A DNA stretch of 64,000 bases, taken from the NCBI GenBank assembly GCA_963575745.1, contig CAUYUJ010000020.1, positions 1-64,000 of the forward strand, in the 5' to 3' direction. This stretch comes from Prorocentrum cordatum. Its lineage: Eukaryota. The first letter of the stretch is position 1; the number at the start of each line of letters is the position of its first letter. Below the pieces are notes generated by a model. That model had not been told where the DNA came from and did no database searches. It saw only the letters and a list, made by a program, of their open reading frames with translations. Both the position numbers and the translations under genes were made by a program. This document shows positions 7,786 through 53,218 of the stretch, piece after piece.

Positions 7786-7873
<88 letters not shown>

Positions 7874-18850: not shown

Positions 18851-21374
18851 TGGCAATCAATTATGGATGGGCTGGTGTGGATACTTTTTTGGTCGCGGCC
18901 GCGCGGCAGAGGGCAGGCGGCAAAAGGGGGTCCGGGGCACGGGCCAACCTAAATTAGCTACTAAGCGAACAGCAAGCCGGCCGGGCCAGCACTCAGAAAC
19001 TGCGGCTGAGGCAGCAGCAGCTGGCGACGCTTGAGGGCTGGTCTGCAACGCCCAGGGAAGCTGATGCACCTGCAGACCTGAGGCAGTGATGCCAGAGGTG
19101 GAATTAGGGATGTACGCCAGAAACGCCTGTCCAGCACTGTGCACGTGGCCCTGCCGCGGACTGAAGGGGCGCTGTCACTGCTGGTACCAGGAATGGTGCG
19201 CAACCAGGGACGGGGCGGGGCGAACGCAAATAAGCACAGGCACTGTGGTCAGGAGTGACCAGGTACAGACTGACCATGTCGCCGCAGGGCGCCAAGGGCC
19301 AGGGCCGCGGCAGCGGCACAGAATATGCAAGGTGGTCGGGGACGGCTGCAGGGGAAGCACGGTGTCTGCCGGAAGGCTGAATCACTCCAAGACACAACTG
19401 AGTACCCTGGGAACGTCGCCAGTCCCGAGCAACAAGGCTAAAGGCCAAGCCCCAGAGGGTGACTGCACCAGGGAGCCCGGCCCAGGGACACGACGCAGTC
19501 GCCGCTGGAGAACCGCGCGTTGCGCGGAGGGACACCAGACTGGCGGGAATGAACATCGCCAGTGCAGCGGGAGGTGGACACCAGGGGAAACCAGCGCCAG
19601 GGGGGGGCAGCCCACACAACGATGCGGGGCCGCGGGGCCACGTGGCAGCTAGCCGCCCTGGCCAAGTAGGACCCTCGCTGGCTGGGGCGGCGGGTACAGA
19701 CATCACCAGCTGGCCAGGTAGAGGGGGGCCCACCGGGGACACCCGGTGCCAGTGGACGGCCGGCGTGAACGCGCGCGAGCGCGGCCGGGGGCGGCCCCGC
19801 CCCTGTAAGAGGGGAGCGAGAGAGAGAGAGAGGCAGAGGACCAGGGAGCGGCTGACGGCCGCACGGATTCGCATGTGAGTGACACGTCCGGTGGGACGTT
19901 ATGGGAACGCACATGCCCGAAGCGGGTGGCCTGGACCGCGAACAGATTCTCAGAACATCAGACGAGTCGACTGCCGTGTTCTCCTCAGGCGTTCCCACTG
20001 TCCTGCGGGTCCACGCGATGGAAGTTTGTCATCAGCACTGGCACCGCCTCTGATGGCGCTGGCCTCGGGAGTTGCCACTTCCCGTCGCAGTGCTGTGGCC
20101 ACAGCTGGCCCCCCCAGCATTCATCCTGACTGAAGTGTGCCCACCTAGACCTCACGGCGCGCACTGACTGGGAGTGGCCAGGGAACCGTCCAGATGGCAC
20201 GCCACGCGGGCTGGCCAGCCAGCTAGTGGCTCTTGACTGCTCTTGCCCGCGTTACCAAGGGCGCAGCTGACGGCTGCCAGGAATATCTAACAAGGGCCAG
20301 GGAGCAGCTGACGGCTGCCAAAGGAGGGCACTGGGGCGCGCCTTGCTCGCCGAAGGTAAACGCCGGAGAGGCGGCTGCTGTGTATGGGGGCCAAGGAGCG
20401 GCAGGCAACAGCCAGGGTAACGGGGACGTCAGAGAGGCGACCAATGCTCCCGGCTGATGGCCGCATCCTGGAACCGAGTGCATCGTGGCCTTGGCCGTTC
20501 GCCTGCACTGCCTTGCCGGGGCGCTGCCCCACTTGTCGGCTTGTGACTGTCCGCTTCCGAGGCTGCGGCCATCAGGCGGGCGATCCAGCGTTCAGAATCC
20601 ACCCAGGAGGCACCCCGGCACAGGACGGGGATTCCACTGGCGCTGGGGGATGGGTCCTCGGCGCCCCCCCCCCGTGGCGGACGCACATGGGTCGGCGGCG
20701 GCCAGGCGCCAGTCCTCGCGGGTAGCCGTACTTTGCATGAGTAGCTCCATGGCGGGATAGGGGCTGCATTCCGCCAATGGGTTTCCACGGTGGGCTCCGG
20801 GTCCGAGCCACGTTCGTCGGGCACGTCCATGAAGTGCGTGAGAGAGGAAGAGAGGGGGAAGCCAGGGGGCGGCTGACGGCCGCACAGCTTTGTGTGAATC
20901 CCCAGAGAGCCAGGAAGGAGCCACGAGACCAGAGGCTCATGGGAGGTAAAACACGTCGAGCGCCGGGGAGTAGGAACAGCCGGGGCGCCCGAAAGTTGTT
21001 GCGCGTTGGACAGCGGCATCCGCGTGCCGTCCACTCGCATCTAACCAGCCGAAGCTGTCTAGCTATGCTGCGCCTTGGGAGGGTGGGGCGGCCGCCTGCC
21101 CCAGCGATAGGCAGCCCCAAGGTATTATGGCCATCAGGCCAGGCGCAGCGAGGTGAGACAGGCCCTGTGGCGGGCCAGCGCTCGCTGAACATGGGAGCAG
21201 CTGCGCCGCGAGTCGTTCAGCGCGCAGCGGGGTGGGTGGGGTGGGCGAGTGCCCGTCGCTCGTGTCGATGGCGGCGGGGGGGCCTTGGTGGCTGCTGTTC
21301 TGGTTGTGAATCGTTGTAGCAGCTAGCTTGCCAGTGGGCGAGGGACTGAGCCCGTCCGAGGCTGCGGCGTCGCC

Positions 21375-22169
21375 TCATGCCCACCAGCGACCCCTCTTGT
21401 CGGGGTCGCGGTGGTCGTCTCGCTGGGGGGAGCGCTTGCCTCCACCTTTCCATTCGGATTCGTTCCACGTGGGGTCACCTTCACCCCATTTTGACCAACC
21501 CTGCCAGCCATGCCATTGCTCGGTGCGACCCGCAGGACTGTTCTCTGTCCAGGAGGCCCGGGCATCTCGGCGCCCATCCCTGAGGGCCTCTGCTGACCAG
21601 GGAATCTGCGCGCCCCTACTACCCGTTGCCCAGGGAGCCTGTGATACTCCACCATGCCGCCCAGCGCCCTCCATGTGTTTGCGGCGGATGGAGCCCCAAT
21701 CTACCTCGCGCTTGTGCTCCTGATCCATCTTGCACGCATCGAAGCCAGCCCTCCTCCAGGCACCCATGAAGCTCATGCAGGTTTCAGGTGCGTTGAGTCG
21801 GGGGGTGCTTTTGTAGCCCCCTTTTACATCATTACCTTGTGCCGCGCGCCTGGACCACGCGTGCCAAACACCGTTGAAGACGCCCCCGACCGTTTTCTGC
21901 AGACGCGCAATCTTGACCTGGATTTCCTCGGTCTTGTTCAGTTCTGCTTCCGCCAGGGAGCATTTGTACATGGGGCCGCTGGACATTGGGTCTTTAAGGT
22001 TGCTGAACGCCCAGTGGTCGGAGCTGCTACCTTTCTTGGGCTCGAGCCGCACTGGGTTGCACCTGGGCGACTTCGCTGCTCGCAGCCCTTTCCCCCCACG
22101 ACATCTTCCGCGTCTAGGCGGGCGTGCCCTTGCTTCCAGGGTGGTAGGTTGGACCCGCTGGCGCCCCTT

Positions 22170-22226
<57 letters not shown>

Positions 22227-24594
22227 AGTCCATGACGGTGCGCTGTCCCACGGGCCATCGTCAGAGGCCTTCTGGGGGCTTGGTTTGCCTTGCTCGCCGC
22301 TCCAGCTGGCTGCTTCTTGGGCGACGGCTTGCGCGTAGGGCGCCCATGGGGCTTGGGTGGCGGAACTTGGTTCACCAGGTGCGCTGCACCATGAGCGAAG
22401 GGGATCTGGCTCCGAGCTCCTGCTGGGGCCCCTCTCGTTAGCCACCACGGTTTGGGCCTCCGTGTCTGGGTTCCAGTCAGGGGTCGGGCTCCTGGGCCCC
22501 TGTCCTTCCGCCTCTACTTTGCAAGGCTGTCCGGCGTTACTCTGGTCGACAGCTGCTTCACGGTTCTGGGATTCATCATTGGCCCTGGGAGCGCCGAACG
22601 CATCGCGGATTGGCTGAGGGACATCGCCGCTGCAGGCTGCGTCCGAAGGCCCTGCCGCCTGAACCTTACGCACGCCCCCGTGACTTGCCTCGCTTTGGGA
22701 GCCTGCGCCTGCGGTCTCTTTGTGCCCATCGAGCCAGTTGGCTGCGGGCGAGTCGCCCTGCCCCATTGCGCTGGTGGCGGTCTGGACTGGGTCTTGTCGT
22801 GCCAGGGAGTTAATGGCGCCGTCGGCCATGGCGGAGGCGTCCATGTCTGCTAGGTAGCCCAGCAGGGTACTGCTGGTGTGGCAGAAAGGGTCGAGGACTC
22901 GCTGCTCTCCCAGGAGCGAGGCGCATGCCCGCCATTCATCCGCGCGCACGACATTTTTCGAAAAGTGGAAGACGACCCGGGCGGCCGCCGCCCTCATGCC
23001 ATCCCAGGGGACGTCGGCTGGGTGGCATTATGCGGGGATCGTTTGTCCGTAGATGCTGACCAGGAAGGGGTTCTGCCTGCAGGGGGGGCCACGACGCTTC
23101 GTCAGTCTTGTCACCAAGAATACCATCTCCATGCTGCTGGACGCAGCCCGTCCACCGCCTGTAGACCTCCGGACTCCAATCCAGCAGAAAACGATGCAGT
23201 GCGCGGTGCATGCCCCGGGAGTCGGGCAGGCTGATACCCCGCCCGGGCAGCTCGACTGTGGAGCGAGTTGGCGTCACGGGACCAGACGGAGGGGGGATAC
23301 TTGGGAGTAGGGCGCTGATATCCCGGAGCCTGGGGCCCTCGCGCTCTTGCTGCACGCTAGAGGAGGAGCCCTCGCCCCCTGCTGCGGGGGGCTCTCCGCT
23401 TGCGCGGTCCGTCGGCCTGGAGTAGGCGTCCGCGGCCGCTGCGTTGGCGGCGCCAGCGTGGCAGTGGACCGTGACGTCGGCACTGTCAACTTCCATGCCA
23501 GCGGGGGTGTCTCGCTTGGCTGGCGCCCTGGGGTAGACGTCAGCTGACTGCTTGTCGAGGATGTGGTCAAGCGTGCCTGGAGCAACGTTCCAGATGTACG
23601 TTAGGCACCATCTGCAGGACCAGCTGGCATTCCACTTCCTCAGGAGCCAGAGTGCTGACATGTGCTCCCAGGGGGGGGTCCCGTATCGCTGCAGATGGGT
23701 ACGTCCGTGTCGGGGCGCCAGAGGAAGCAGCCTAGGGCGGGCTTGTTTGCGCCGCAGACCGACAGGGGGGCCCCTGGCGGGCACGCGTCACACCTGGCCG
23801 TGCAGGTGTTGGTGGAGTGGGCGTCGAGGCCTAGCCTTCCGTCAGCAAGCTTGTGGGCGGGGAGCGTCATGTTGGCCAACCGCGGCCGGTATGCGTTGGG
23901 AGCCGTCATGACAAGGTCGCACAGTGATCGTGGGGTCGGCGCAAGCGGAGGACACCCGAACCCGAGAGGAAGGTGTGCCAGGGTTGGGAGCACCGATGAT
24001 TTCCTGTCTTGCCGCTTGTCCTCCAGGTTGGTCATGTGGCCCAGGATTCGCTGGCCCATGGCCATTTCCGAGCTGCAGCCGGGCGGGGCGAAGGGGGTGG
24101 GGGGGCCTCTCTTCTCTATAAAGACAATCCAACATCGCTCGCAAAGCCATTTGCAGTCCCTGCCCAGCATGTAGGCCTGGGCGCGGCTCCGCGCCAGGAG
24201 CTCCCTTGCGTCGTCATCTTCCCAGGTGCCAGCTGAGTACTTGAGCCCTTTCTTGGCGCAGTCGCTTCCGTCGCAATTGATTAAGCATCCTTTTGAGACC
24301 CGTGCTGGCAAAACGTCCGTCGGTCACCCGCGGCGGGTTCAAGAGTACCCCTGGAGCGGGGGCAGCCGGCCTGTCGTCGTCGAGCCGTCTTCTGGACATT
24401 GCGATTCCTCCCCCGATGTACTGCAGCCCTGCCATGGACTTCGGACACCCGAGGCCCTGCCCCGACCCAGTGAGCTCCTTGTGCAGGGCGCAGATGGAGC
24501 AGTCATATCCACATAGAGTGTTGATTCTGGCCGGCTGGACGAGCGCCTCTAGGACCCTCATAGGCGCCTCCAGTGGGAACCTGCTGTCTTGCAT
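21375..24594 (-). pseudogene. Frameshifted C-terminal continuation of the helicase ORF, with Cys-rich (zinc-finger-like) and low-complexity regions
   Basis: Overlapping minus ORFs 24214..24594 (CGYDCSIC), 23640..24311 (CDGSDC...WLCERCW), 22936..23784 (WSCRWC) and 21375..22997. Confidence 0.5.
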
Positions 24595-27500
24595 CTCTCT
24601 CTGCCCAAGTGCGCGGGCACTGGTGCTCCCGGGCGACCGCGTGGTGGCGCGCGCACGTGGCGAGCCTGCTGATGTGCTTGATAGCGTCCTCGAACTTCCC
24701 GCGCAAGGTGGTCAGAGCGTTGAGAGTTAGGCCCCAAGCGTTGGCGAAGGCGGTTCTGCATTCCAGGTGGACATTTTGCCAGGGTACGCAAATGCCCATC
24801 ACCGCTTCCACTATGTCCCCAGTGGCCTCCGGGTAAGGGAAGGGCCAAAGTGTGGCACGGGGCTCGCGCAGCTGGATCATCATGACTACCAGGAGGACTC
24901 CGAGGGAGGGGGTGTCCAGTGGGAGTCCGTCGCTGTTGAGGAGGTCCTGCCTCGGCGTGGAGCCGCCTTGGGCGGCTTGGAGCAGATGCGCCAGGTTCTG
25001 CATCCCAGGGTGCACGCGATACCTCCTGCATTTTCCCGTGGTTGCCCTCCAGGCCTTTGGGAATTGGTGTAGGATCTCAGGCGGGGTGCACCGCTTGTTG
25101 TCCTTGGGTCGGTGGCTGCGGCCCCGCACCTCGGGCATGGGAGGGAGTGAATCGACGGGGACGGCCAGGCTCTTATCTGCCCAGGGTGCGCCAAGCCCCA
25201 GGACCCACACCAGCGCAGCCCACGTCATGTTGTAGACGAAGTTGCTGGCGGCGATTCCGAGGTCCACGTCGTAGCAGAACCCCAGGTGGCCCCATGCCTT
25301 GCGGTCGAACAGGCCCGGTTCCCTCGGGGCGTCGGCAATGGAGTACAGGTGAGGGCGTAGACCGGAGACTGTGTATAGGACTACTCCCCGGGCAGGGTCC
25401 TCGACGAGCCTGAGAAGGCTGTTCTGCATGGCCTCACCGAGGGCGCCCCAGCAGAACGCGGGATCTAATGGGGCAGCCATCTTGTCAGCGAAGTTCTTCT
25501 CCATCGAGGCACGAGCTTTGTCTATGGCGCTGTCAATCTTCTTGATTGCGTCGTCGCCTGCATGTGAGAGGGTAGCCGACTCAGGGACCCAGGCTGCTAG
25601 ATCCATGATGAGGTCGGAGCCTGTGTCGATCGCTAGCACCTTGCGCCGTCCACTTTGGTTAGGCTCCTGAAACCGCACCCACAGCTTCGCCATGCGCCCG
25701 TACTCGGGGAGCTCACGCAGCCTTGGCCGGGAGGCTGTTGTGAACATCCTCCCGTCGCCAGTGATCACGACGTTGCGCGTCGCATCGGCGATGGCGACGT
25801 TCACCCTGTTGGCGTTGTCCATGAAGCCCCAGTCGTGTCGGCCGTTGGATCTGGTCGTTAGGAAGATGACGATGTCTGCTTCACCTCCTTGGCTGGAGTC
25901 GATGGTGGAGAGGACGAGCCTGCCGCTTGCCAGGTGTTCGGCTGCGAACTGACGTACGCCAGGGGTGTCCAGGGAGACGCCAATGCGCCATGAGTCTGGT
26001 TGGTCAAAAACGCTGGCGTAAACGCGAAGGCCCACTGAACGCCTGAACTCGCTCGCTGCCCAAAGGCCCCGGCCTTTGCCCCCTACGGACTTCCCCTTCC
26101 CCTTGCCCTGGCCTTTCGACTGTCGAAGAGCGCCGCTGATGCTTCGGGAGCTCCGGGGCCACCCGTTTTCCAGGATGGCACATTGGAGCTGATAGCCGAT
26201 GACTACCCGGACTGCGAAGCCTTCCTTCATTTCGGGAATTAAACCTCCGATGATGTTCACTGCCTGGGCAGCTTCCCAAAGGTTAGCATATCCAGCGTGT
26301 AACTTTGAGGTGACCTCAAGCGACGGGTTGTCAACCAAGAGAAATCGGCGTCGCTGTTCAGGGGGTTGCCTGCCAGGGTCCATGTTCCTCAGTGCCAAGC
26401 GTAGGTCGTCGATGTCTGCCTTGGCGGCGCCGGCCAGTCTCGCGAGCTCGCCCTCGTCCCAGGGTCTGATCTGCTGCCGGGGGAGACCCGTGACGAGTGG
26501 CCTTTGGGCAAGTGGGTCGGTGAGCCCAGAACGCATAGCGCTGTTGTAGAAGACCCAGTTGGGCAAAACCAGGATGTGAGGGCGCATGCGGTAGCACACG
26601 TTTAGCTGCACGACTGCTGTCGCGTGGTCTCTCAGAGCGTGGTGGAGCCGGTCGAATACAGAAAGGCAGAAACCCTGCTCTGCAGCCCTCCTGGAGATGA
26701 CTGTAGGTGGGAGCTGCTTGGGATCGCCGACCAAAACCAGGCGCCTCCCTGAGCGGATCACGCTGTCGAGGGACATCGTGGCCATTAGCTCGTGCGCCTG
26801 TCCCGCTTCGTCGATGATGAATAAGGCGACGGCAGCCGCATTCTTCAGCGCTTCGGCTGACTCGCGCGCGGCGATAATAGTCAGGGCCTGCTTGAGGAGG
26901 TTGGTGCGAAATCCAAGGAAGTCTTTGGACGGCGCGCCACCCTCGTAGGGGAAGCTGCCCGTGGCCTTCTGGTAGTGCCCCCCTGGTGTGAGCTCAGCCA
27001 GCTCTCTCGCGGCCTTGTAGTCTCTGGCAAGGCGCACGCACAGGGCAGGGAAACCGGCGTTGGGGTCTAGCTTGTTGGCTTTGCGCGCGGCGAGGAGTGC
27101 CTGGGCGGGTTAGTCCGCTGCTGCGTTTGACCCTGCGCCCAGGGCCACAGCCAGCCCGGAGTTTACCGGGCCTGCCCAAGTGTCCAGAGCTGCGACTGAG
27201 AAGATGGTCTTCCCGGTTCCAGGGGGGCCGTGAGCAATTGCAACGCGGTGGCCGGTGGTGGCCAGGAGCGCTTTGGTAGCGTCCTCGTTGAGACCGCGCC
27301 GAGCCGCGCCATTGCCCAGGGTCGTCTTGGATGGGAGGTCTCGTCCTCGCTGGAACACCTGGCCTGCGGCGCCGTCCACTTCCTGGTCCGTGAAGGGCAG
27401 CGCTCCGCGGGGCGCGGTGGGCTGCGCTAGAGCTGCAGCCAACGTACCAGGCGCGGGCAGGTCTGTGCAGGGCGCAAACGTCTCCAGGGTAGCGACCGCT

Positions 27501-28636
27501 CGTGCTCTGAGGCTCTGCCCGCATTTCGCTGCATGGACTGCGTCGTTCGCGGCAGCCTTGTCCGCCCCGTCTGCAGTCCGGAAGGTAAGTAGGTAGGTGA
27601 TGCGGGCCAGGGGGATGCCGAAGAGGTCCTCGGGGTGCTGTTTCAGCTTGTGGATTTCATTCAGCGCCGCCGAGATCCGGCAGAACTGGAGCTCCGATGG
27701 CACTCTGTCCACCCGATACCACGGCTCACCTTCGTTTTTTGGTCTGGGGATGTCGGGATTGTCGTGGAAGGGGCCGTGTTTGCCCATGCTGTACTCGACG
27801 ATGCACTCGTGCGCTGGGTACTTGGTGCCTGGTGAGAGCCCGAGCGCTTCGCAGTCTGCTGTAAGGACCGAGGCGCCGAGATCAGGCGGCCACCGCAGCT
27901 TCACGGAGGCGACCTTGTCCAGTGCGGGGCTGGTGAGGGAGATCAGTAGAACCTGGGCATCCTGCCCGGCATCCTGCCCCTTGAAAAGGATCTCGTAGAT
28001 AAGGTTCCACTGCAGGAGCAGGAGCCGCTTTCCAGCCCCAGGGTTGAGCGAGTCCCTCAGTCGGAATCGATCCAGGGGCGTCCAGGTCGAGTTTTGATCA
28101 ACTGAGGTGACCGCAACATCCAGGGCGCAACTGCGTCGCCTGAGGAGGCCCGTCCTGGCCTTGAAAGAACCATCCCAGATTGTCTCGGTCGCTGCCATGC
28201 ATTCGGTCCATGCTAGCCTTTCGAGCGACCGACCACGCTGGCGAAGCTCGCATGGCCACTGGGGGGGGAGAGCCACGGCGTCAGGGATGACCCCCAGGGG
28301 GGCCGTCGCGTGCACCTGGGCGCTGCCGCAGCTGCTGGGGATGGCGAAGAGCTGCTTGACCGCGGTCGCCGCGGCTATCGCGGCTGACTCGAGGACGATC
28401 CTCGCTGTACCTGCTGTTGGGGCTGCGCTGCCGTCTGAGCTGTGCTGCTCCTCGGGCGCCTCTGTCTGCGGCCATCCTGTGGGTCCCCGCGACGGTGCTC
28501 TGCCGGCGGCATTCGAGCTGTCACTGGTGGCGCTGGGCATCCTCCACGGTGAGGGGTTGGCTGCCATGGGGAAGAGGGTGGCGCCCCGCCTTTCCAGAGG
28601 CCCGCCATCGGTGCCCGAACTGCCGGTACTGCACAA
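24503..28636 (-). pseudogene. Upf1/Nam7-like superfamily 1 helicase with long N- and C-terminal extensions; disrupted at ~27110
   Basis: Walker A HGPPGTGKT (27206-27232), SNAAAD, IIDEAGQ, LVGDPKQLPP, SVFDRL, LNVCYRM, TIDSSQGGEADIVI, GFMDNANRVNVAI. Confidence 0.9.
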
Positions 28637-29283
28637 GCCCAGGTCCCTCGCCGAGCTTGCTGGGGAGGTCGGATATCCTGGGACAGGATGGTGCCTGGTG
28701 GGCTGATGTGGTTAAAGGGGTCATCCCTGGATGGAAAAGTATTGGGCACGTGGTCCCAATCATCTGGGAACGACCATCCAGGCATGGAGGCTTGTCCGTT
28801 GGTCTTTCCTGGCTCTGGCAGCTTCCACCCAGGCCATTCGTGCCTTGGGACCGCGCAGTCATGCGTCGAGTCCCACGCGGAGCCTAGTGTCATGGTCCAG
28901 AGGTTGCCCGCCGAGATGAAATGCCTGGGGTCTGGCCACCCGCAATCCCACTGCCTGTCGCCCTGCCAGTAGTGGTCTGATCTCAGGAGGCGCACCTTCC
29001 CGTCGCAGCGTTGTTGACGCAACTCGCACCACCAGCACCATTCCTGGTTGAAGTGTGCCCAACGTAGCCAGGGACACTCGCGCGCACGGAAGGGGCGGAG
29101 ACCGTCGACAGCTGGGGGGCCGTCCAGGCGGCACGCGACGCAGGCTGGCCAGCGTGCCAGTGGTCCTTGATTGCTCTTGTTCTTTCCAATGCTACCAGGG
29201 GAGCAGCTGACGGCTGCCAGAAATTTGAAAACACGGGCCAGGGAGCAGCTGACGGCTGCCAAGCACCTTAGAAGCCACAGGGC

Positions 29284-30233: not shown

Positions 30234-30239
30234 GCCGAA

Positions 30240-34643: not shown

Positions 34644-34736
34644 CCGCCAGGCTGGGGCGCGGGTTCCAGGGACCAGCTGGTGCCTGGGGGGGGGGGCCTA
34701 GCGCTTGACACAGCGTTCTGGGGCCCTCGTTGGAGT

Positions 34737-41502: not shown

Positions 41503-41831
41503 GTCCCCCGGAAAATAATGGACTTGAAACGGGATAAGGCCTTCATCCTCCGCAACCATCGGCCTGCTCGGGAGGAACTCTGACCGAGGCAGACAAACCG
41601 TGGAGGTCGTCCTCCTGACTGCTCTCTAAAAACACAGCGGGGCAGAATGGTCTTGTCTTGCTGTTCTGCAACACCCGTAAAGAGGCTCTGGCCAAGGGTG
41701 TTCTCGCGAGGAGCATTCACCGGCACTGAGAGCAAAGATGAGAGGCGCCACTCAAAAGCACAGCACGTGACACAGGCTCGGGCTGGGCCAGGAAAACGGG
41801 CAGAGGACGGAGAGAGAGGGAGCCGACGATT

Positions 41832-43480
41832 CTAGTCCAGCTGCCTTCTCGACGCAGCCCTGGAGCGGTTCTTGGCCCCGGGGTCCTCCTTGCGTTTCTG
41901 CGAGGACTGCTCCTCGGCGGCGAGCCGAAGGAGCCCTGATTTCAACAGATGGAGCTGAGCAGCGTTACACTTAGCCATATCTGCCTTGGTGAGACAATCG
42001 ACCGGAAGGAGCGGGTGAGGCATCCATCGCATTGACGATCCGATCCGATCCATGGTACCTCGTATTACCGCTAAGTCTATCGCAGCTCGGCGGTCCGACT
42101 TGGCTCCGGAGGTCAACTTGGATAGAGTGTCGTAGATACCCTTTGCGTCGACGACGCTCACGTTGTCGGCCGTCTGAGGAGGGCCTAACACTTCACATTG
42201 GTCTTTCAGAAGAGCCACGAAACGGCCGAGATTCTCCCGCCAGCGTTCGTTCACTACGTTTCCACGTGCGACGTCCAGCAGGAGAATCTGCAGCCACTCG
42301 GCTTCCCCAAGAGCACTGGAAAGAGCTAAAGTCTCCCCAGCCAAAGTAGAAACCACTTGGCGCCGTAGTTTCCCGGACCTCCAGGCAAGGGGGGCGACTC
42401 GGGCCCGGGGCCCGTGGGCCAGCGAATTGTCGGCCATATAGATCTGCCAAGCTTCCTGAGGATGCCGGGGCCCCACTTATCCTCAGTCCCCACCCCTCCA
42501 CAATCACTCGCAGTCGCCAGCGCGAAACCGTCGGGCTTAAACCGCCAGACGATGATCGGGAGAGAGGCTGTCGACCTGAGATGGTCGACCATCTTATTCG
42601 CATCCAGCAAATCTTCCACACAGGGACTGTTGACTTCTGTGGCCAGAATAGAAGCGGCCCCCGCGGCCTCGGCGCGGGTTTCCCTGCCGACCCACTGGAG
42701 TTTGTAAATGAGGCCCCTAAAAGCCGCCACTTCCCCTCCGACGAGTGGGCCCGCGTGGTCTCCTCTGCGCCCTCGTGCCAAGGGAATCTTATTAAGTTGC
42801 TCCAGGATGTATTTTTCTTGATCGACAAGAATCCGGCCCCCGGTGAACCGAAGCCTACGGCCTATGTATTCCACCCCGGCGGCATCCAGGAGTTTCATCT
42901 TCCCAAACGTGAAACGCTCCTGAAAAGGGTCCAGGTAGTTTTTTCTTTGCCTTCCCTGAACGCTATGGCCCAGTCGTCTACTTCCACCGGGACCTGCGCC
43001 TGCAACTCGCCGCGGGCTCGCTCCACGAATCAGCAGGGCTCGAGCTCAGTGCGTTCGAAGCCCCGCGACTTCATGAAATTGGCCGCGGCGCGGTGAAAGG
43101 CGAGGGGCGCGTCGTCTAGGCCGTAGACGGGCGCTATCAACTCGATGAGTGAGCCGGGCGGAACCGGGACTCCGTCGCACGGTTCCACGAACACTCGGCC
43201 TCGAGCGCGCCTGAGGGGTTCGGACTGACAGAAAGCATTCTTGATATCCCCAATATAGATAGTAAGACGATACATGAGAGACGTGACGAGAAACAGCATG
43301 AGTGCCTCCATGCATGGAGTAGGAGCATAGACCTGAAGTTCCGCCGTGTCTTCGTCCTGATGTCCCCGAACACACCACCTGGATTTGGCTTTTCCCTCGA
43401 AAAGGCCCCCTCCTGCGGTTTCCACCTTCGGACCATGCGACTCGAAACGATCCGGCTCGGGAAAGCCAGCGGAGCTCATT
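41832..43480 (-). pseudogene. Copia RT and RNase H, frameshifted
   Basis: KSRWCVRGHQD, GDIKNAFCQ, YGLDDAPLAF, VEVDD, WRSGKLRRQVVSTLAGE, VDAKGIYD, DCLTK. Confidence 0.9.
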
Positions 43481-44649
43481 GGCTTCCTTGGGGGGGTGCA
43501 CGATCACAGCCTTGGTTCCCTCGGATATAGCTTTCCATTCGTTCGCGTCGGAGATGTCGAACTTCATTTTCTCTTCTGGGCTAAGACGCCTGCACTGAAC
43601 CTCGGCCCCTCGAATGGCCAGGAGAGAAAGAGAAACGGATCCATCTTCCCCAGGGACGATTTCCACGTCGGCATTTCCGTTGGCGTAGGTCTCCCGGGAC
43701 CCACTCCATCCCTGGGACTGGATCTCTTGTTCTAACTGATCGAGAAGGTCGACCTCCTCGTCCATATGGGCAAGAAGGGTCATAGCCATGTCCCCGCCGC
43801 CCTCGGTACGATCTCCTCCTCGTGGCGAGTGGGACCTCTGTCGAGCGGAAGCCGCAAGTTCCCCAACCCGTTGCCTCACTCTGCCTTCCTGAACTCCCCG
43901 AAAGGCCTCCCCTGGAGTGCGGGTCATTCTACCGCTCCCTCCATCCAGACGCCTAAGTCCCTCCGTGTCCTGCATCAAGCGAATGAGCCGACCAGGGTCT
44001 ACTGGCTCCGCTGAGCGATGCTGAGAGGCAGAATCGGACAGCGCCAGCCTAGGAGCACTGGCGGGCGGAACACTGGCAGCCGAGGCTTTTAAATGAGGGC
44101 TGTCGGGAGGGACATCGCCTGGCCCCCTGTCCCTTTGTTCACCTTGAGGGGGAGTGGGCCTCGAGCGCGTGGCGCGACCCGAATCGCCGTCTCGTTCGGC
44201 AACACTGCGAGCCCTCTGGGACTGCCCAGAAGTCTGCCTGGAGGGCCCAGATGAGACTTGAACCTCGGATCTGTTTTCCAAGGACTCGGGAGCACGCGTC
44301 CCTTCAGAATGGGCCGGCAAGGTAGCCCCCTCAGGAATCGGGGCCAGACCTGGAGGAGGCAGAGGTGGAAGAGCCCCGAGTTGACCGCCTAATTCCCCCC
44401 CTTCTCCTGAGGCAACAGATGGGGGGACAATGTCGGGACCCTCCCCCGCGGCGGCCCCGCCATCCGCCTCCACCGCCGGCGCCATCTCTGGGGGGGAGGC
44501 GACCTCAACGGGAGCGTCTGGAGCCCACGCTCCGGGGGGAGGGGGCCCCTCACTGGAGACGTTTGTCCCAGCCCGACGCGCGCTGGTTTGGGCCTCTCTG
44601 AGAAGCTGTTGGACAGACGAATCAGCAAGAATCTCTGCTCCCCGGGATT

Positions 44650-45710
44650 CTTCGGTCGTGGCCAACCGGACCTGCTCCGTGGAGCATTTCCAGAGACGAG
44701 ACCTCATCGCTACCCAAACCGACGTGCCGTTTTGCAGCACCACGAGTCCTGGACCAACCCATCTGTCTCTTTGAAGGGCGAAAGTTTTCTGGCCCCCCCG
44801 GGGAGCTCTCCTCCAGACGTAGACCCATTGACCTGGAGAGAAGTGTCTGTCTCGATGGGTGGGTGCGCGTGCTGCCCTAGCCAGACGACGTTGGTTGGAC
44901 GACTCGAACAGTTCTTGTCGCGCCAACCTCCGGATGGCGCCCCGGCGAGCGAACTCGGCCGCCGCGGTGTTCTGATCCCAAGAGCCAATGGACAGGTCAT
45001 CTGTTCCCACCACCTGCAGGGGGTCGTCCGACGTAATGTCGTTGGGTATCCGGGGGTTAATGCCGAAAACCATCTGACAGGGAGCAAACCCTCCCCGGTG
45101 CAGGTACCGATTTTTCGCGGCCGTCACTTCGTGGACCAGCGTTTCGAGCTCCAGCGTGGTGGTGACGAGAGTGGTCTCGGAGGCCCGAACCAGGATGTCC
45201 TTAACCCACCCCCCGTGTCTCTCGGCTCGGCAGTTCTGCCACGGACTCTCTGAGTCCGTGACATGCTGAAATACCCCCAGATGTTCCAGACCTCTCTCGA
45301 AATGACCCCGAAACTCAGGCCCTCCGTCGGCGATGGCGAACAGGGGGTGAACGAAAAAGCTCTCATCCAGGCCCTCATAAAGGCCCTCCAGGCTCCCAGG
45401 GCAGTGCCATCGTACATTTCTACGACCTGATAGTTGGCCCCATGGCAAATGATGTTGAGAAAGGGCATTTGTTCCAACTTAAAAGTGACGTAGAAGGTGT
45501 CTGACGCGATGATTCGATTGAACTCGAGCGTTCTAGGTACCGCCACGAAGCGACTGCTGGCTGGACGCGAGTGCGCAGCGCAATCGCCACGTCGGTACTC
45601 GTCATGCACAAACTTGAGCACCTCTGGCTTGGCTTGGGCGCCTCTAAGGACCTTCAGGAAAACATCTTCATGGGGGTGACCTAAATTGACGTGCACCTTG
45701 TGTATTAGCC
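44650..45710 (-). pseudogene. Copia integrase (HHCC-like region, catalytic core, C-terminal WxGPG region), frameshifted near 45400
   Basis: HVNLGHP...C, FNRIIASDTF, DGGPEFRG, SPWQNCRAERHGG, RWVGPGLV. Confidence 0.88.
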
Positions 45711-45899
45711 GTCTGACCTTCGGAGTGATCTCAAAGGGACGATCCTGGGCTACCCCCTCAGGGTCGGGATCGCCCTCAAGGGCTTCACCCTCTTCGACGT
45801 CGGCCGGATAGCTCTCGGCAAGGTACAGCTCGGGTCCCCCAGCCTCTCTCGCCACCCTGATTTGTCCTGGTGAGGTCTCGGGAATGGCCACGTTCGTGC

Positions 45900-46535
45900 T
45901 GGCCCGAACGCCCCCGGCCAAAGCTCGAGCAAACTTCGGCGGATACACTCGAGCCCTAGCTGTCATTGAACTGCCTATCAGATGAGCGTGCCAGCGGTCT
46001 CCGGCGCACCTCGACCCTGCAAATCGCTCCAAAAAGGCATCACACTTAGACATTAGCCTCGTGGGTTTCTTCGACAAGGCCCCATCTCCCGACACTGACA
46101 AACCGAAACGACAAAGATCAACGCACATCGAACCAACTCCAGGGAGGTTCTGCACATAGCAAACCATCTCGGTCCTCCATGACCCCGCGGTGACGGGGTG
46201 TTCGAAGGCGAATTTTCCCCCCTGATGGCGTTGTTCTAAAGCCACCTCCATCGCGAAACCGAGCAGAACGATGGCTTCAGCATTCTTGCGACGCTGCTCA
46301 GGAGTCGTTTCCAAATGGGCGGTGGCGTTGTGCGCTATGGAGAAGGCATCGCAAGGGGGTTCCAATATGGCCATCCAAGGTTTATGCTTTTGCAGAAAGA
46401 GACGAAACTCCTGCCTGCGCTGTTCTTTTAGAGAGTCCCATCCTCCTTCCTTGTCGAAGCTGCCCAGGCGCACCACTCCGGCGTGGTCAGAGGAGTGAGC
46501 GATCCTAGGAGGAGAGAAGACCTCGACAAAGGGCC
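45900..46535 (-). CDS. Methyltransferase-like domain embedded in Copia pol, just upstream of integrase
   Basis: FVEVFSPPR, FDKEGGWD, EPPCDAFS, FAFEHP..GSW, DLCRFGL, KKPTRLM, VYPPKFARAL; the order resembles C5-MTase motifs I, II-III, IV, VI, VIII and X. Confidence 0.6.
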
Positions 46536-46797
46536 GGCTCCTAAAGCTGGGCTCTGTAAAGTTTGGTTTTGTCGAAACAACCCCTCCCCTCTCCCAGTTT
46601 TCTCTTGTCCCCTTTCGTTAGATATACCTCTCGATCATCTGGCCACTGATCCCCGAAAATAGTGTCGTCAAGCTCCTGGCAGTAGAACTGGGTTTGGCCG
46701 TCCCTCTCCTGGATCGGTCCAACCTCGAACACCCTGCCCAGTTCCTGAAACCGCGCACCTGAACAGATCTCGAAAATGTCCCGGTGGTTGGGATCCC

Positions 46798-48681
46798 CTA
46801 TCCTCGTACTGGTACTGTCGTGGAGGCCGGGGCGTCGGCCCAGGTCCACTTGCCGCCGCCCTCGTGACTCCACGTCTTCCACCCAGTCTGATCCCACCCC
46901 TCCTTGGCCAGGCGCTTCTTCTCGGCGTCCTTCATCTGCTGCTGCTGCCTCCAGGCTGCCTCCTCTGGGTTCTCCGTCGGCGTCCGCGGACCCCCTCTGG
47001 CTGACAAAGGTCCCGCCGCAGAAGGCCTCGTCGGGCGCTCGGCCCTCTGCTGAGGCTGCTGCCCGCCGCCCTGCATCGGGCCACTCTGCACCCCAGTGAG
47101 CTGCTGGGCGGGGACCACTGGAGCCGTCGCCGGGGGCTGCTGCTGAGTGCCCCTGGGCGTCGAGGGCATCGCGAAGCTGCTGATCGTGGAGGACGAGAGA
47201 AGAGCTCCCTGCTGATCGCGAAGACCCCGAGGATTGTCCACCCTGGTCTTGGCGTAGCCGATCGGCGGAGGCCATGCTGCACTCGATGTCTGATGAGTCG
47301 CCGTGCCGGCGCCGTACGACGGGTAGGCGCTCACCACTGGGGCCGTGCCGACAAAGCCCCAGCCCCCCTTCTGGGTCGCAGCCGCGGCCGCCGACGGGGT
47401 TCCACACCTCGGAGAGGGCATAGCCGCGATCGAGACTCCGTGAGGCGGCGTCTGCAGCGGCGGGGGCTGCTGAAGGGCTGGAGGAGTGGCAATGCTGTGA
47501 TGCTTCACTCCCTCCGGCGCTGGCGGTGGTCTGACTGAGACTGGCCCCTGCCCAGGCTCCTCGTGTTTCACACTTACACTTGCCTCTGGGGTTGACACTC
47601 CCGCCTCGCTCTTCCGACCTGTTGCCTGTGGCGCCTCGGGCACCGGCTCTCTCGTCACCAGTGGAGGCGGCGCCTTCGTCGCGGCGGGTCCGGTCAGGAC
47701 CCGCGCCGTCGACGAAGGCGCTGAGAGCTGCTGGGGCTTCGACTGGAGCGTCGCGACAGCCTCCATCTGGCCCGACACCGTCGCGCAGAGCTGGTTGATG
47801 GAGGCCTCCTGCTGATTCTCCTCGTTGGCGATCTGCTGCAGGAGGCGCATGGTCTCGTCGCCGCCGTCGTCCGAGCTGGCCGAGGGTTCCATCGCCGCTC
47901 TCTTGGCTGGAGAGGGCGCCGCCTGTCGGCGACGCTGGGCCCTCTGCTCCTTGGCCTGCTCCTCCACGTCGCGCATGATCACGTCGGGCTGCTCCGCCTC
48001 GACCTGTTGATAGGGTGTTCCAACCGCCTGAGCGTCGACCGATGCTGGCCATGGCGGCACCGTCCCTGCCGACGTTCTCGCCGCTGGCACTCCTGGCGGA
48101 GGAGCTGGGGCTGCCACTAAAGCCTGCAACTCTGGATCGGCTCCGCCCAGCTGGGCGAAGCCCTTTGCACACAGCGAGCAGGCGGCCGTCTGGCGCTTGC
48201 ACACGCAGGTCATCTCCTTCTTGGGCGTGGACTTGTCTGGCTTGGTGTCCTGGTACGCGACTCGCATGGTGCACAGCCCACACCCCCACCAACGCCCATG
48301 CCCATTGCTGCCAAACTCCACGTGAATGGGCATGTGGCGGCACGTGTAGAACTGCGGCGGGATTACCCGCATGCGTTTGACGAGATTCGTCGGCCAGAAG
48401 CGTCGATTGATCATCATCCTGCCGAACTCGTCGGCCAGCTTCGAGAGCCAGAATACCATGGCCCCCACCACAGCCGCCCACGACCTCTGGCCGCGGCTCA
48501 TGGACTGTGGGACTGGCGCTCCGGTGGCCGCGTAGGTCCACTGCTGGTGATCGCCCAGCTGTTCGCCCATCGTCGTCGGGCGGTTGGCCCGGCGCTGCGC
48601 CTCGGCCTGCCCCTTCTTCTTGCCCTTGGAGGTGGAGGAGCCTCGGGGGCCATTGACGGAGTTCACGCCCGGCGGCGGCAT
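46798..48681 (-). CDS. Additional Copia polyprotein segment with Cys/His motif and low-complexity linker
   Basis: 627-codon open frame with CRH...GSNGHGRWWGCGLC and CVC...CSLC, between protease and the MTase-like domain. Confidence 0.55.
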   Translation of the reverse strand: MPPPGVNSVNGPRGSSTSKGKKKGQAEAQRRANRPTTMGEQLGDHQQWTYAATGAPVPQSMSRGQRSWAAVVGAMVFWLSKLADEFGRMMINRRFWPTNLVKRMRVIPPQFYTCRHMPIHVEFGSNGHGRWWGCGLCTMRVAYQDTKPDKSTPKKEMTCVCKRQTAACSLCAKGFAQLGGADPELQALVAAPAPPPGVPAARTSAGTVPPWPASVDAQAVGTPYQQVEAEQPDVIMRDVEEQAKEQRAQRRRQAAPSPAKRAAMEPSASSDDGGDETMRLLQQIANEENQQEASINQLCATVSGQMEAVATLQSKPQQLSAPSSTARVLTGPAATKAPPPLVTREPVPEAPQATGRKSEAGVSTPEASVSVKHEEPGQGPVSVRPPPAPEGVKHHSIATPPALQQPPPLQTPPHGVSIAAMPSPRCGTPSAAAAATQKGGWGFVGTAPVVSAYPSYGAGTATHQTSSAAWPPPIGYAKTRVDNPRGLRDQQGALLSSSTISSFAMPSTPRGTQQQPPATAPVVPAQQLTGVQSGPMQGGGQQPQQRAERPTRPSAAGPLSARGGPRTPTENPEEAAWRQQQQMKDAEKKRLAKEGWDQTGWKTWSHEGGGKWTWADAPASTTVPVRG

Positions 48682-48916
48682 GGCTCCGTCTCACTGGTGC
48701 ACGGCCGAACCCGACTTGACGATGGAGTCTCTGGGAAACGTCCCCGTCGGGCTCGCTGAGATAGCTGGCGGCTCGAATGCTCGAGCCCAGCTGCTGCGTG
48801 ATGGCGAACGCGATGATCCAGATGAACGACTGCTTGGTTCTGGACGTCTCTCGTCTCCGAAACGACCGAAGTTCACGAGCCTCTCGCCTTCCCGGTCGCC
48901 CCTGCCGTCGTACCTG

Positions 48917-49660
48917 TTATTCTCCTTCGGTTTTCCTAAGTACCGCTCTGCTATCCTTAGTACGATCCGGGAGGACGCTAGGCTGTGTGAGCTCCGATCT
49001 GCGCTCCTGGAAGTTCTCGTCTTGGCCCCCTGGGGCCTCTCGAGTTACCGCACCTTCCCGGGGCCCCGATTCGGTCAGCTGTCCTGGACGCGTGGCCCCC
49101 TGGGGTTCTCGCGGGGAAGGAATCGAGCCTGACCCAGGCCCAGAGGATGATGGCGAGGAGACGATGATATACCTAGACATCGTCTCGCTCCTGAAATCTT
49201 GCTCCTCGACCTCCGGATGCTGGCTCAGCACCGAAGGAGGACACTTGAAAACTGCTCCCGGAGTGGGCATTCCGAAATCGTCTAAGCGCATGGTGCGATG
49301 TCCGGTGGGAAGCCGACGCACGTCAGCCTTTACCCCTAGACGCTCGAGTTCGATCTGATTCGTGCTTAGGTCGATTCTCGCCCCTAGCATCTCCTGAAAC
49401 CCTACTGGGAGGAGGGGCGGCACGTCCTCTTTGAGGACGTCCAGCTCGATGACGCCCATCTTTCCTTGGATGCCCGCGGGGATCAGAGCAGTGCTCAAAA
49501 CTGTTGCGCCACCCCCCCGATCCCGCGGGCCGAACGAATACGGGGGGGCACCTGGGGCACTCGCAAGCCTCGCTTGCTCAGAAGCTCACAGCGCCGCTTC
49601 AAAGCAGGCATACCAATCAGTCGTTGACCCGCTGCGGCGTCGACGATCATCTCGCCTGGG
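48917..49660 (-). pseudogene. Copia aspartic protease, frameshifted
   Basis: MIVDAAAGQRLIG (~49612-49650, decayed D-T-A/G motif) and DVPPLLPVGFQEMLGARIDL. Confidence 0.75.
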
Positions 49661-49789
49661 TCGACGCTCATGAGGGTGACTGTGGCGCTGTCGAAGTCCG
49701 GGTCGCGGCTCTGGGTCGGGTCAAGAATGTTCGCATAGACGTAGGCGCTGACATTCGCGGCGGCTGCCGCGGATGCACCGTGGCCATTC

Positions 49790-51312
49790 CGCGCCGGACA
49801 TTCACGAGAACAATGACCCTTCTGATTGCAATTTCTGCACCTCGTCCTTTTGATCAGCTCTGTCAGTGGAAGACGTGATTTCCTCTGTCAAACCTGCCCA
49901 TTGGCAGCGCGATGTCCGCGTGGCTGCCTGTGGGCCGGCTCTGGTTTGTCCTTACTGCGATCGAAGAACTTGCGATCCACCTTCATCTTGCGCTTGAGAT
50001 CCCGGTTCTGCTTCCACGTTTTGCGCCTCTCCTCCTGCATGGTCGCAAACGCTTGCGGAAGCTCGTCGTCGCACAGGCCAGGGCCCTCCAGCGTCACGTA
50101 GACCTGCTGCTCGCCGTCGGTGTCCAACGAGGAGACGTCGTCGTCCTCTAGGGTGGAGTCGACGTCGAGATCGTCCGTCTGTACGGAGTAGGTGGGCTCA
50201 TCCTTGGGGAAACTGCTGTCCGCCATGAACGATCTCTTCTGGAAGGATAGGCGCTCTCGCCGGGTGACGTCCATCTCCCTGATCGCGGCGAGAGCCTCGG
50301 AGTAGGAATCGCAGGTCTTCATCATGACCCTCATCAACTGCTGGCCTCTCTCGTCGAGACCGACGCCCTCTTCCAGGAACATGAACTTCCAGTCATCTGG
50401 GACTGGAAGACCTAGTGTCGCCACCTTGTCGAATGCCAGGTCGATGCGGGCGGCGCACTCGGTGAGTCCTTCTCCCTGCCGTCGTCGGAATGAGAAGAGA
50501 CACTCTCTTCCGGCCTTCCTTTTCTCGTCATCCACCTTCTCGCCTGACAGGAGGTCCAGGCGCTCTATGATTTTGTCGGCGCCGTTGTTGGAAGTGAGAA
50601 CTTCATCCGATAGGTCGTCCATCTTCCTCTGGAGGTCAAGAGGAAGTACCTTGAGAATGCGATCCACATGCTTATGAGCGGGAATGTCTGTGAGCTGGCG
50701 CCAACGTACAAGCTGGCGCCTCCATAGTTTGTACTCGTTCGAACTGCTCCAGGCGCCCGGGCCGGCGAAGTCCTTGCCCCGCTCGCCCCAGCCGCTCCAG
50801 TCCTTCCAGGTGGAGTCGCCCATCCAGCCGTCGTCCCAGCTGTCCCTCCAGCCGGACTTCCACCAGCCGCTCCGGTCGGCGTAGTCCTCGACGCCGTCTG
50901 AGGCGTCTCGCTCTCCGGTGCGCCTCTGGCTCCAGGGATCTCCACGCTGCCACGGATTTTCGTCTTGATCTGGCGCTGCCCCACTGGCCCGTCCTTCGCC
51001 TGCTATGTCGGTTGCCCGACCTGCTCGGCTGGACCCATGGACCTGGTCTCGCACCATCATGATCACCCTCTGCAGCTGCTGCGGCGATATTCCTGTGGCC
51101 GGGTCTGGCCTGGCAGGTGGCGGCGCCTCTGGTGGTGCCGGCCTCGCCGCTGTAGCAACTCCATCCAGCAGCGCTCTGAGCTGCTCCTCCGAAAGGCGAA
51201 ACTGGCCATCCTCATCTGCCCATTGTCTTGCTGTTCCCAAGGCTGCAACGATCGGCCCCTGGCCTGCTGAGGCCGAGCTGTGAGGTGAATTAGCACCCTG
51301 CTCCTGAGACAT
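49790..51312 (-). pseudogene. Copia gag with CCHC zinc knuckle
   Basis: Long ORF after the PBS (YKLWRRQLVRWRQLT, FRRRQGE); CRNCNQKGHCSREC at ~49797-49840, beyond a TGA at 49888. Confidence 0.8.
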
Positions 51313-51345
51313 CGTCGGGTCCGCAGAACCGAGCCTCCGCAGAGG

Positions 51346-51356
51346 CTCCGCTACCA
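51346..51356 (-). promoter_or_regulatory. Primer-binding site, initiator-Met tRNA type
   Basis: TGGTAGCGGAG, 1 nt inside the 5' LTR end; compare the Ty1 PBS TGGTAGCG. Confidence 0.8.
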
Positions 51357-51357
51357 C

Positions 51358-51681
51358 TGTCTCCCCACCGATGCTGTCCCCAGATGACAGAGTGTCCCCT
51401 TTTGTTATCTGGCCTGCTCGGTCTCAGTCCCAGTGCGATCTCCGATCGCGCTGCACACGCACTCTGGCACTCGTAGTAGTCGGAGAAAGGAAGGGATGGG
51501 TCTTGGAATGGAATGAGTAGTGAGCGACGGAGGATTAACAACAAGTGAGTAGAAGAAGTATGGCCTTGAGCCAAGATGGTTACGGAGGGGGCCCAGTTCC
51601 CGATCATATGGTTCAAGCCCAGGGGAAAGGGTGAGGGCTACTCTCCTCACCCGATCAATGAGCTAGAGGCGCTCATTCCCA
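51358..51681 (-). repeat. 5' LTR of Copia #2, containing a DinoSL-like copy at 51565-51586
   Basis: Direct repeat of 41179-41502; SL-like TCCGTAACCATCTTGGCTCAAG (20/22). Confidence 0.95.
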
Positions 51682-52800
51682 CACATCTCTTAACTGCAGG
51701 CTTCCAGGGTGTTCGCTGGCGGTGGGGTCTCCAGGGAGGCTGGCCGCAATACTGCCTCTGTCGTTGGCCCTGCAGTATGGGCATCGGATGGGCGTGGTGT
51801 TTCCTCCTTCCCAAAGCAGTTGCGGTTGGCTTTGTCTCCATTGCTCTAGGCAGTGCCTGTGGAACCTGTGCCCGCAGAGGATTAACACCTCGACTGTACC
51901 GCTCAGGTCTCCACTGCAGATGGAGCAGAGTTGCGGTCCATCCCCGGCGTCCCACGTTGGCATGGGTTCGGGTGCACCCGCCCTCATCACACGCTCGGCG
52001 TCGCCTGGGGGTTCCGCGACGTTCGCGATGGAGGCTTCCAGACTCTCGATGAGGAGGCGGGTCATGGAGGAGGCCTCTTCCTCGGTGTGGCACGCCCTGA
52101 GGCCAGCGCTTCGGATGAGGAGACGCACCTGCTCGTTTTCGAAGGGGGTGTATAGGATGGGGTTTCGCACGCCCCCTCGCGGAGGATGTCCCCAATGTCG
52201 TTGGGGGTATGGATGCCAGCAAGTTGCATCTATCTGGTGAGGACTTCGTATGGTCTGGCGTCGATTCCTCGGACACGTCGGACTGGTCGAAGGAGGGGGA
52301 TGTAGTGTGGCGCGAGGCATAGCCAGATGGCTCTGGCGATCCAGCTTCCTGGTTCGAGCTGTGGCTGCGCCTCCCTCAGCAAGCCTTCTGCCACGAGCTG
52401 CGCGTCGGTTCCACTGATGGAGCTTCGGTCGATGCTGTTGGGTTGCCTCGGCCTGCCGTTGGCCTCTTCGTCTCTTTGTGTAGCGTCCAGGTCTTGTATC
52501 ACTGCCTTCAGGATGTCGCCCCTAAGACGGCTTCTGAAGGCCAAGAGGTCACCTAGACGCCCCAAGAGAGTTCCATTAGGGCGCGATGGACCGAAGACCG
52601 AAGCGTTGCCCTCCAACTACCAAGCGAATGCTTCCACCAACGCGAGTTTCACACGACAACTTGGGGACATGACCACAACCTAACAACTTCCATATCCCCA
52701 CGATGGCACGGGCAAGTGACAACCATAATGCAGGATGGGCCCGCAGAACGAGCGAAGCATTTGAATAAGCTCTTCGGGGCTCAGGCCCCAAACTCACTGT
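51682..52800 (-). pseudogene. 5' part of the giant element's first ORF, with a RING-H2 finger (51772-51927)
   Basis: CSIC-x12-CGHRFHRHC-x20-CPYC (C3H2C3); upstream abutting ORFs 52230..52616 and 52576..52797; cut by Copia #2. Confidence 0.8.
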
Positions 52801-53218
52801 CCTATGATGCGCTCGTTGGAGTCATCGGAGCTTCTCGTACGGCTTTTCCCGAGGCCATGCGGGTGCTGCTGGGAGCCTAAAACTCCAGCACGCCCGGGCT
52901 CTCTCGGGGACCCATTGGGCCGTCCTGGACGCGGCCCGGAGGGGGGGGGGTCCGGCCAGGGGCACCAGAAACGTTGGGACGGCCCCTGGGGGGGCCAGAA
53001 TCCTTGGAAAGGCCCCCTGCGTTGCCCCCCTGCCGGTACCCTTGGAAAGCCCAGCCGACGGGCCTGGCCGACGGGCCCCGCCAAGGGCCTGCAGCCGAGG
53101 GCGGGCCCGCTGCCAGGGCCAAGGCCGAGGGCAAGCCCAGGGCTGGGCGGACGTCGCCGCCAGCGTCGAACGAATGGTGGTTAGCGTTGCAAAATCCGTC
53201 CGCATAACTAATTGTTCT

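Follow-up and report, generated by a model that had tools for sequence, protein, structure and literature searches.

A run of retroelement and helicase modules in a Prorocentrum cordatum contig is probably a mosaic of separate decayed units and not one giant LINE

We analysed a stretch of 64,000 nucleotides of the dinoflagellate Prorocentrum cordatum (assembly GCA_963575745.1, contig CAUYUJ010000020.1, positions 1 to 64,000 of the forward strand; hereafter the window), in which modules of a long interspersed nuclear element (LINE) are found together with RING-H2, DNA methyltransferase and helicase sequences between 18.9 and 53.2 kb. A preliminary description had read this run as a single LINE of about 24 kb. 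Our results indicate that the 24-kb run is probably a mosaic of separate co-oriented units instead of one giant retrotransposon; all of its parts are pseudogenes. The first unit would be a dead non-LTR (long terminal repeat) retrotransposon of the SymbioLINE-Dnmt kind, about 8 kb long, extending from 36.2–37.7 kb down to ~29.3 kb, with a probable C5-methyltransferase as open reading frame 1 (ORF1) and apurinic/apyrimidinic endonuclease (APE), reverse transcriptase (RT), zinc knuckle and RNase H in ORF2. The second would be an independent helicase unit of ~8.9 kb (29262→20322) that holds a single ORF of ~2,600 codons, possesses a 5′ end, a start and a stop of its own and precedes a fragment of a second helicase unit. 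The third, upstream, would consist of a decayed coding stretch and a RING-H2 frame, parted by a younger Copia-like insertion. The LINE is most likely a DNA methyltransferase (DNMT)-carrying element of an already described type and its linkage to the helicase is unlikely. As inferred from its family, a live copy would use target-primed reverse transcription, with APE nicking the target, RT copying the RNA and RNase H removing the template.

The RING-H2, C5-methyltransferase (weak by sequence), APE, RT, zinc-finger, RNase H and superfamily 1 (SF1) helicase modules named in the preliminary description are all present, about where it placed them and co-oriented. All domain matches of the run lie on the minus strand, and 0 of the 46 plus-strand ORFs of at least 120 aa matched a Pfam family at E ≤ 0.01. 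Its view that the copy is decayed also stands, as judged by the frame changes and in-frame stops in ORF2 and in the helicase gene (Table 1).

The extent of the LINE was established from its relatives. Pfam applied to the window's own LINE ORFs gave only RVT_3 at E 0.096 and no RVT_1 at E ≤ 1, because the LINE domains are too divergent. A phmmer search with the frame 32182–33516 retrieved 400 relatives (best E 1.7e-95, 52 at E ≤ 1e-30); among the 150 of these that were listed, six are 1,782–1,836 aa long, with the RT starting at residue 427–461. Fifteen relatives were scanned with Pfam: 14 carry at least one of Exo_endo_phos, Exo_endo_phos_2, RVT_1 and RVT_3, one carries none of them, and a DNA_methylase, helicase or RING family was found in 0 of the 15. 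In three relatives RVT_3 ends 8–39 residues short of the C-terminus. The 1,782-aa relative P0020 includes Exo_endo_phos (residues 101–320), RVT_1 and RVT_3, and its residues 18–1773 could be aligned by tblastn on 34691–29420 in six pieces, residues 18–442 falling on 34691–33429, directly ahead of the RT block. None of the 10 relatives tested by tblastn matched below 29420, above 34691 or elsewhere in the window. These alignment limits place ORF2 from ~34742 to the TGA at 29293–29291, which lies ~33 codons past the end of the P0020 alignment. ORF2 thus ends where the six full-length relatives of ~1,800 aa end, a result that goes against a single LINE of ~24 kb.

The six P0020 pieces fall in frames 2, 0, 1, 2, 2 and 1, that is, four frame changes from the alignment coordinates; decay of ORF2 therefore amounts to at least four frame changes and three in-frame stops in 5.4 kb. 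We also compared the window with short contigs of X1 (share of window words 0.52), the one DNA sequencing run listed as containing it; no RNA run was listed. X1 contigs without the ORF2 indels were found (five letters absent at 33423, one additional G at 32215 and another at 32069, and CA added at 29818), showing that better-preserved copies exist in that organism. The contigs carrying ORF2 relatives are mostly 6–13 kb long for an ORF2 of 5.4 kb, which is weak evidence for a separate LINE. Three short matches, P0022, P0055 and P0131, are the most similar to the window RT (61–72% identity); they carry the EukProt label of a culture of Pyramimonas, a green alga, which is at odds with the dinoflagellate leader relics of the window (see below).

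Upstream of ORF2, the frame 36205→35204 encodes a probable C5-methyltransferase. By eye, LFDGWG, GPPCS and ENV follow one another as do motifs I, IV and VI. This frame has one in-frame TGA (35693–35695) and is open upstream to 37669, past one further stop at 36206–36208. Pfam DNA_methylase was matched at E 0.019 with the ORF 35204–35692 and at E 0.053 with the read-through frame, in both cases below the cut-off (13–15 bits versus 22). In an ESM-Atlas feature search with the 163-aa frame, 30 of 30 matches were PF00145 clusters, the best with a score of 0.95 and 177 shared features. When the fragment was compared with longer proteins, none of 414 candidates reached E ≤ 0.001 and no homologue was retained; PDB sequence searches matched no methyltransferase either. 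By eye, the C-terminal motifs had seemed to continue in the frame 34740–35399, for which no Pfam match was obtained at E ≤ 1. Codon-position GC periodicity is weak over 36000–37800. The poly-C runs at 37669–37658 and 37547–37538 were considered as a candidate 5′ junction.

The helicase stands as a gene of its own. Within the ORF 24506–27109, Pfam identified AAA_12 (E 1.6e-22) and AAA_11 (E 2.8e-14). Its sole close relative is P0169, an environmental protein of 2,541 aa without a name, which covers 96% of the 868-aa query at 47% identity, contains only helicase families in Pfam and belongs to a 90% cluster of four full-length members (2,535–2,541 aa) on separate contigs. The contigs that encode P0169, P0265, P0266 and P0268 measure 15.6–27 kb. 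By tblastn, residues 3–2118 of P0169 are aligned over 29184–22794, and its last ~235 residues align to the end of the frame 21378–23027 with a score of 280, versus 55 ± 9 for shuffles; no P0169 match was found in the window below 21600. Colinearity with this stand-alone protein from first to last residue shows that the window holds a whole helicase gene, 29192→21375. The view of the helicase as a part of the LINE was therefore not borne out: it is a self-contained ORF, matched throughout by a protein that stands alone, and its 5′ end recurs without the LINE, as described below. The gene has lost its start, an ATT occupying the position of the P0169 Met (~29192–29190), and has accumulated five frame changes and one stop in 7.8 kb. 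Its motif VI is unlike that of P0169. The ~600 residues ahead of the helicase core and the ~1,400 behind it are rich in Cys pairs and matched no family; in particular, SEN1_N and the UPF1 zinc domain were not detected by Pfam. AlphaFold models of these N- and C-terminal regions, built on 5-sequence alignments, had mean predicted local distance difference test (pLDDT) values of 30.2 and 32.4 and were unusable.

Other searches with the helicase gave distant relatives. Among near-length proteins only motif-level relatives were recovered, and the best-named distant matches are senataxin-type proteins covering 11–26% of the query. A metagenome scan with the helicase alignment kept 80 of 136 candidate loci, all with generic motifs (query residues 26–498) and none a close relative. 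Scans of viral contigs with P0169 and P0020 gave no matches. Three environmental proteins in ENA (P0170, P0269 and P0271, 4,181–4,341 aa) combine a 2-oxoglutarate (2OG)-Fe(II) oxygenase, a UPF1-type zinc domain, an SF1 helicase and a C-terminal RVT_1 fragment, and match the window in the helicase core only, with 33% identity; they may belong to a further large element of the helicase-RT type or stem from merged gene models.

The helicase unit has, in addition, a sharply defined 5′ end. Two copies of the 21-mer TGGCAGCCGTCAGCTGCTCCC, which has four matches in the window versus 0 expected, are located 70 nt ahead of the helicase start. From the first 21-mer on, 280 bp recur at 20321–20059, starting sharply at the identical base. 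This copy lies directly behind the 3′ untranslated part of the first unit; it is neither preceded by LINE sequence nor followed by a helicase body. The sharp recurring start implies that the helicase unit has its own 5′ boundary, seen once without the LINE. The helicase belongs to a multi-copy family, which would consist of tandem or dispersed genes or else be an independent mobile unit.

Several observations weigh against a mosaic of separate units. The spacing is tight: the ORF2 stop (29291–29293) is followed by the first 21-mer after 29 nt and by the helicase start after only 98 nt, both genes being on the minus strand. ORF2 and the helicase are similarly decayed, and composition is uniform across the parts (GC, CpG and GpC compared; CpG observed/expected 0.63–0.89), a comparison without power to separate the readings. 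Neither LINE termini nor a distinct LINE 3′ untranslated region (UTR) was recognised at the locus. A target-site duplication (TSD) was looked for between 29225–29400 and 34700–41178 and no convincing direct repeat was found; the 9-mers common to these two segments (21 versus ~7 by chance) are mostly G-runs. The ends and TSD that the preliminary description had hoped to define were thus sought within the window and none could be set, nor was an A-run seen after the ORF2 stop. Since no homologue of the methyltransferase frame was found, what connects it to this LINE family is its adjacent position and the published precedent. The relatives used for the LINE and the helicase are 45–47% identical and come from other organisms, where a lineage-specific fusion would be invisible. 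X1 contigs placed on 20001–40000 (3,297, of which 148 at ≥99% identity and 3,149 below 99%) cover 30 of 30 bins and mostly differ from the window, so that all parts have other copies; these contigs are too short to reveal which parts join, and depth (summed, 5.5–109 per 667-nt bin apart from an artefactual peak) allows no conclusion on copy number or linkage. The peak, 5,477 in bin 28672–29338, is an artefact of a polypurine tract at 29300–29338 (plus strand) that corresponds to a poly-Pro stretch closing the ORF2 frame and draws thousands of contigs in all three runs. Finally, insect LINEs with a fused SF1 helicase provide a precedent, as far as the published account goes (PMC6338049).

These points would fit a composite retroelement of ~16–17 kb, with DNMT as ORF1, APE-RT-RNase H as ORF2, the helicase as ORF3 and the RING outside, or a helicase carried as a passenger through LINE read-through (3′ transduction). 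Such a composite would also agree with the multi-copy state of both LINE and helicase in X1 and with the ~4,300-aa ENA proteins, which join a Upf1-type helicase and RVT_1, though in a different family. We nevertheless regard it as rather unlikely. The helicase has its own start, its homologue stands alone and the 5′ end of its unit recurs without the LINE, while 5′-truncated LINE copies would not yield a sharp common 5′ start of the helicase module. Moreover, a helicase was absent from the 15 scanned LINE relatives, whose contigs are mostly too short for an extra 8.9 kb. The contigs of the helicase cluster were also compared with those of 18 LINE-relative clusters and none coincide in size, which is a weak test. 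We also regard as rather unlikely a LINE subfamily that gained a third cistron (the helicase 98 nt behind ORF2, in a ~17-kb element with a DNA methyltransferase, an RT and an RNA/DNA helicase), or the 21-mer-marked helicase unit as a new mobile unit travelling with or by the LINE.

The single LINE-like element of ~24 kb, which would begin with the RING at 53.2 kb, reach 18.9 kb and be broken only by the Copia-like insertion, would account for the location of all domains on one strand within one microsatellite-poor block, and for a RING frame that stays open once the LTR element is removed, but is very improbable: everything that opposes the composite opposes it too, the RING and the 37.7–41.2 kb segment have no tie to the LINE, the ORF2 proteins of the relatives begin at ~34742, periodicity is weak over 36.0–37.8 kb, a GC content of 65% makes long open frames frequent by chance, and there is no recognisable content below 20059.

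Table 1. Coordinates of the features recognised in the run (window positions)
Feature	Positions	Strand	Basis	Remarks
Second decayed helicase 5′ end	20059..20321	minus	self-BLAST	72% identical to 29262-28977
Zinc-finger/SF1 (Upf1-like) helicase pseudogene	21375..29192	minus	Pfam, P0169 alignment	~2,600 codons; in-frame stop 27110-27112; 5 frame changes
Helicase Walker A	27229-27206	minus		
Helicase DEAGQ	26818-26795	minus		
Helicase motif V	25909-25880	minus		
Helicase unit 5′ end	28977..29262	minus		two TGGCAGCCGTCAGCTGCTCCC 21-mers, helicase ORF start, Cys-rich N-terminus
LINE ORF2 pseudogene	29294..34742	minus	phmmer, Pfam on relatives, tblastn colinearity with 10 relatives	in-frame stops 34737-34739, 34698-34700, 30240-30242
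ORF2 APE	~34445-33798	minus		
ORF2 RT	~33426-32072	minus		
ORF2 zinc knuckle	30671-30615	minus		
ORF2 RNase H	~30227-29420	minus		
ORF2 stop TGA	29293-29291	minus		
Probable C5 cytosine methyltransferase frame	35204..36205	minus	Pfam below cut-off, motifs, Atlas	LINE ORF1 candidate
Methyltransferase motif I (LFDGWG)	35926-35909	minus		
Methyltransferase PC motif (GPPCS)	35632-35618	minus		
Methyltransferase ENV	35482-35474	minus		
Coding-like stretch, no family found	38264..40959	minus	GC periodicity, ORFs	three frames
Copia-like LTR retrotransposon	41179..51681	minus	self-BLAST, RVT_2, zf-CCHC	nested, 10.5 kb
LTRs of Copia-like element	41179-41502 and 51357-51681	minus		
RING-H2 frame (stop-to-stop)	51676..52521	minus		core Cys/His 51927-51766; 3′ side cut by LTR element

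We next consider the upstream part of the mosaic, where nothing ties the RING or the 37.7–41.2 kb segment to the LINE. The ~6 kb of unknown ORF in the preliminary description is not a single ORF, codon-position GC periodicity being clear only over ~37800–41100. The coding-like stretch 38264–40959 changes frame at least twice and contains one in-frame stop (39089–39091). Pfam found nothing in it at E ≤ 1 except a chance-level match (E 0.15), and an Atlas search with the ORF 38264–39088 gave no usable match. One X1 contig reproduces 37757–38049 exactly, then 39053–39180 with 17 differences in 128, skipping 1,003 bp, and so represents a deletion variant of the stretch or a further copy of it.

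The Copia-like element does interrupt the run, as previously proposed: its 325-bp LTRs are 96.9% alike by self-BLAST and the 5-mers on its two flanks, CCATC and ACATC, differ at one position of five. RVT_2 reached 30.1 bits versus a cut-off of 31.6, the zf-CCHC match is weak, and Pfam recognised neither an integrase nor a protease family at E ≤ 0.01. Both LTRs carry a spliced-leader relic, at 41386–41407 (21/22) and 51565–51586 (20/22) on the minus strand, ~95 nt from the upstream end of the LTR, which suggests that the trans-spliced RNA of the element was reverse-transcribed, the leader becoming part of the LTR. The RING-H2 frame itself is well supported (Pfam zf-RING_2 E 3.8e-10, 40.3 bits versus a cut-off of 27.3, C3H2C3 spacing) and is set off from the LINE by the 10.5-kb Copia-like insertion and ~3.5 kb without identified content. 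With the LTR element and the 5-bp duplication removed, it remains open for ~130 further codons, which are arginine-rich and of low complexity; this extension means little because of the 65% GC content.

As for the sequence setting, GC over the studied run is 58–66%, and at ~65% GC both strands contain long stop-free frames, which are common by chance. The run is nearly free of microsatellites, as had been observed before: the only tandem array between 18511 and 53220 is (CT)27 at 22171–22224. Its downstream edge is formed by a dispersed minisatellite based on an 11-mer (CCCAAGAGGCC-like), present at 5400–5967, 12573–12800, 18397–18510 and 62977–63554. The stretch of the run below 20059 has no recognisable content. 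The window contains one gap of 100 N (60638–60737). Searching for the 15-nt core of a 22-nt sequence that we take to be the dinoflagellate spliced leader, with at most one mismatch, gave four sites in the window versus 0.14 expected, all on the minus strand; with the upstream bases included, these relics match 20–21 of the 22 nt and support the assignment to a dinoflagellate genome. Two are those of the LTRs. The two others, at 4400–4421 and 11376–11397 (minus, 21/22 each), lie outside the studied run and are likely the 5′ ends of retroposed transcripts. Co-oriented parts are expected in dinoflagellates, and here the spliced-leader relics, the Copia-like element and every domain share one strand. 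Also outside the run, 6432–9380 comprises large inverted and direct repeats (0.8–1.5 kb, 81–92% identity) around a poly-A at 7787–7884.

A single element of this size would, if true, surpass every known LINE in length and unite modules for methylation, ubiquitin ligation and helicase activity. A mosaic of separate units implies something more modest: a DNMT-LINE of the published type in a GC-rich dinoflagellate, not obviously of the group of the original description, by which the known range of retrotransposon-borne methyltransferases would be modestly widened. The helicase is the part worth following up: its unannotated, multi-copy family encodes a giant protein, has intact relatives in marine assemblies and shows a conserved 5′ end with a sharp boundary.

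The closest known system to the LINE is SymbioLINE-Dnmt, described as a dinoflagellate non-LTR element without poly-A tail, in which ORF1 is a DNMT and ORF2 comprises Exo_endo_phos, RVT_1 and RNase H (de Mendoza et al. 2018, Nat Commun 9:1341; PMC5890265). TSDs and conserved 5′ and 3′ UTRs are also described for this family, in which the role of the methyltransferase is unsettled. The claim that the architecture is undescribed consequently falls for its DNMT-ORF1 plus APE/RT/RNase H-ORF2 part, published as SymbioLINE-Dnmt (PMC5890265). Judged from the published architecture, the order in the window is identical, a probable DNMT frame and then APE, RT and RNase H. ORF2 likewise ends after RNase H. 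No A-run was seen beyond its stop, and a frame adjoining ORF2, not established as DNMT, stops a few nt from the inferred ORF2 start. In contrast to SymbioLINE-Dnmt, the window genome has ~65% GC, the DNMT frame is below the Pfam cut-off with no homologue found, and TSDs were not found for the LINE.

In insect LINEs of the TRAS/R1 and Jockey groups, a virus-derived SF1 helicase is reported to be fused into the polyprotein (Morozov et al. 2019, PMC6338049). Here too, an SF1 helicase is physically beside a non-LTR retrotransposon; it is, however, a separate ORF of 2,600 codons with its own start, and the association is putative. The helicase itself resembles the Upf1-like SF1 helicases (AAA_11/AAA_12; senataxin, IGHMBP2 and ZGRF1 according to databases) by its Walker A, DEAGQ and later motifs, and differs from them by its long Cys-pair-rich flanks matching no family and by its multi-copy, broken state. 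Lastly, the inserted element shares with Ty1/Copia its 325-bp LTRs ending in TG...CA, a zinc knuckle of the gag type and, ~1.5 kb away from the 3′ LTR, an RT of the RVT_2 type; it differs by an RVT_2 match just below the cut-off and by LTRs that hold a spliced-leader relic.

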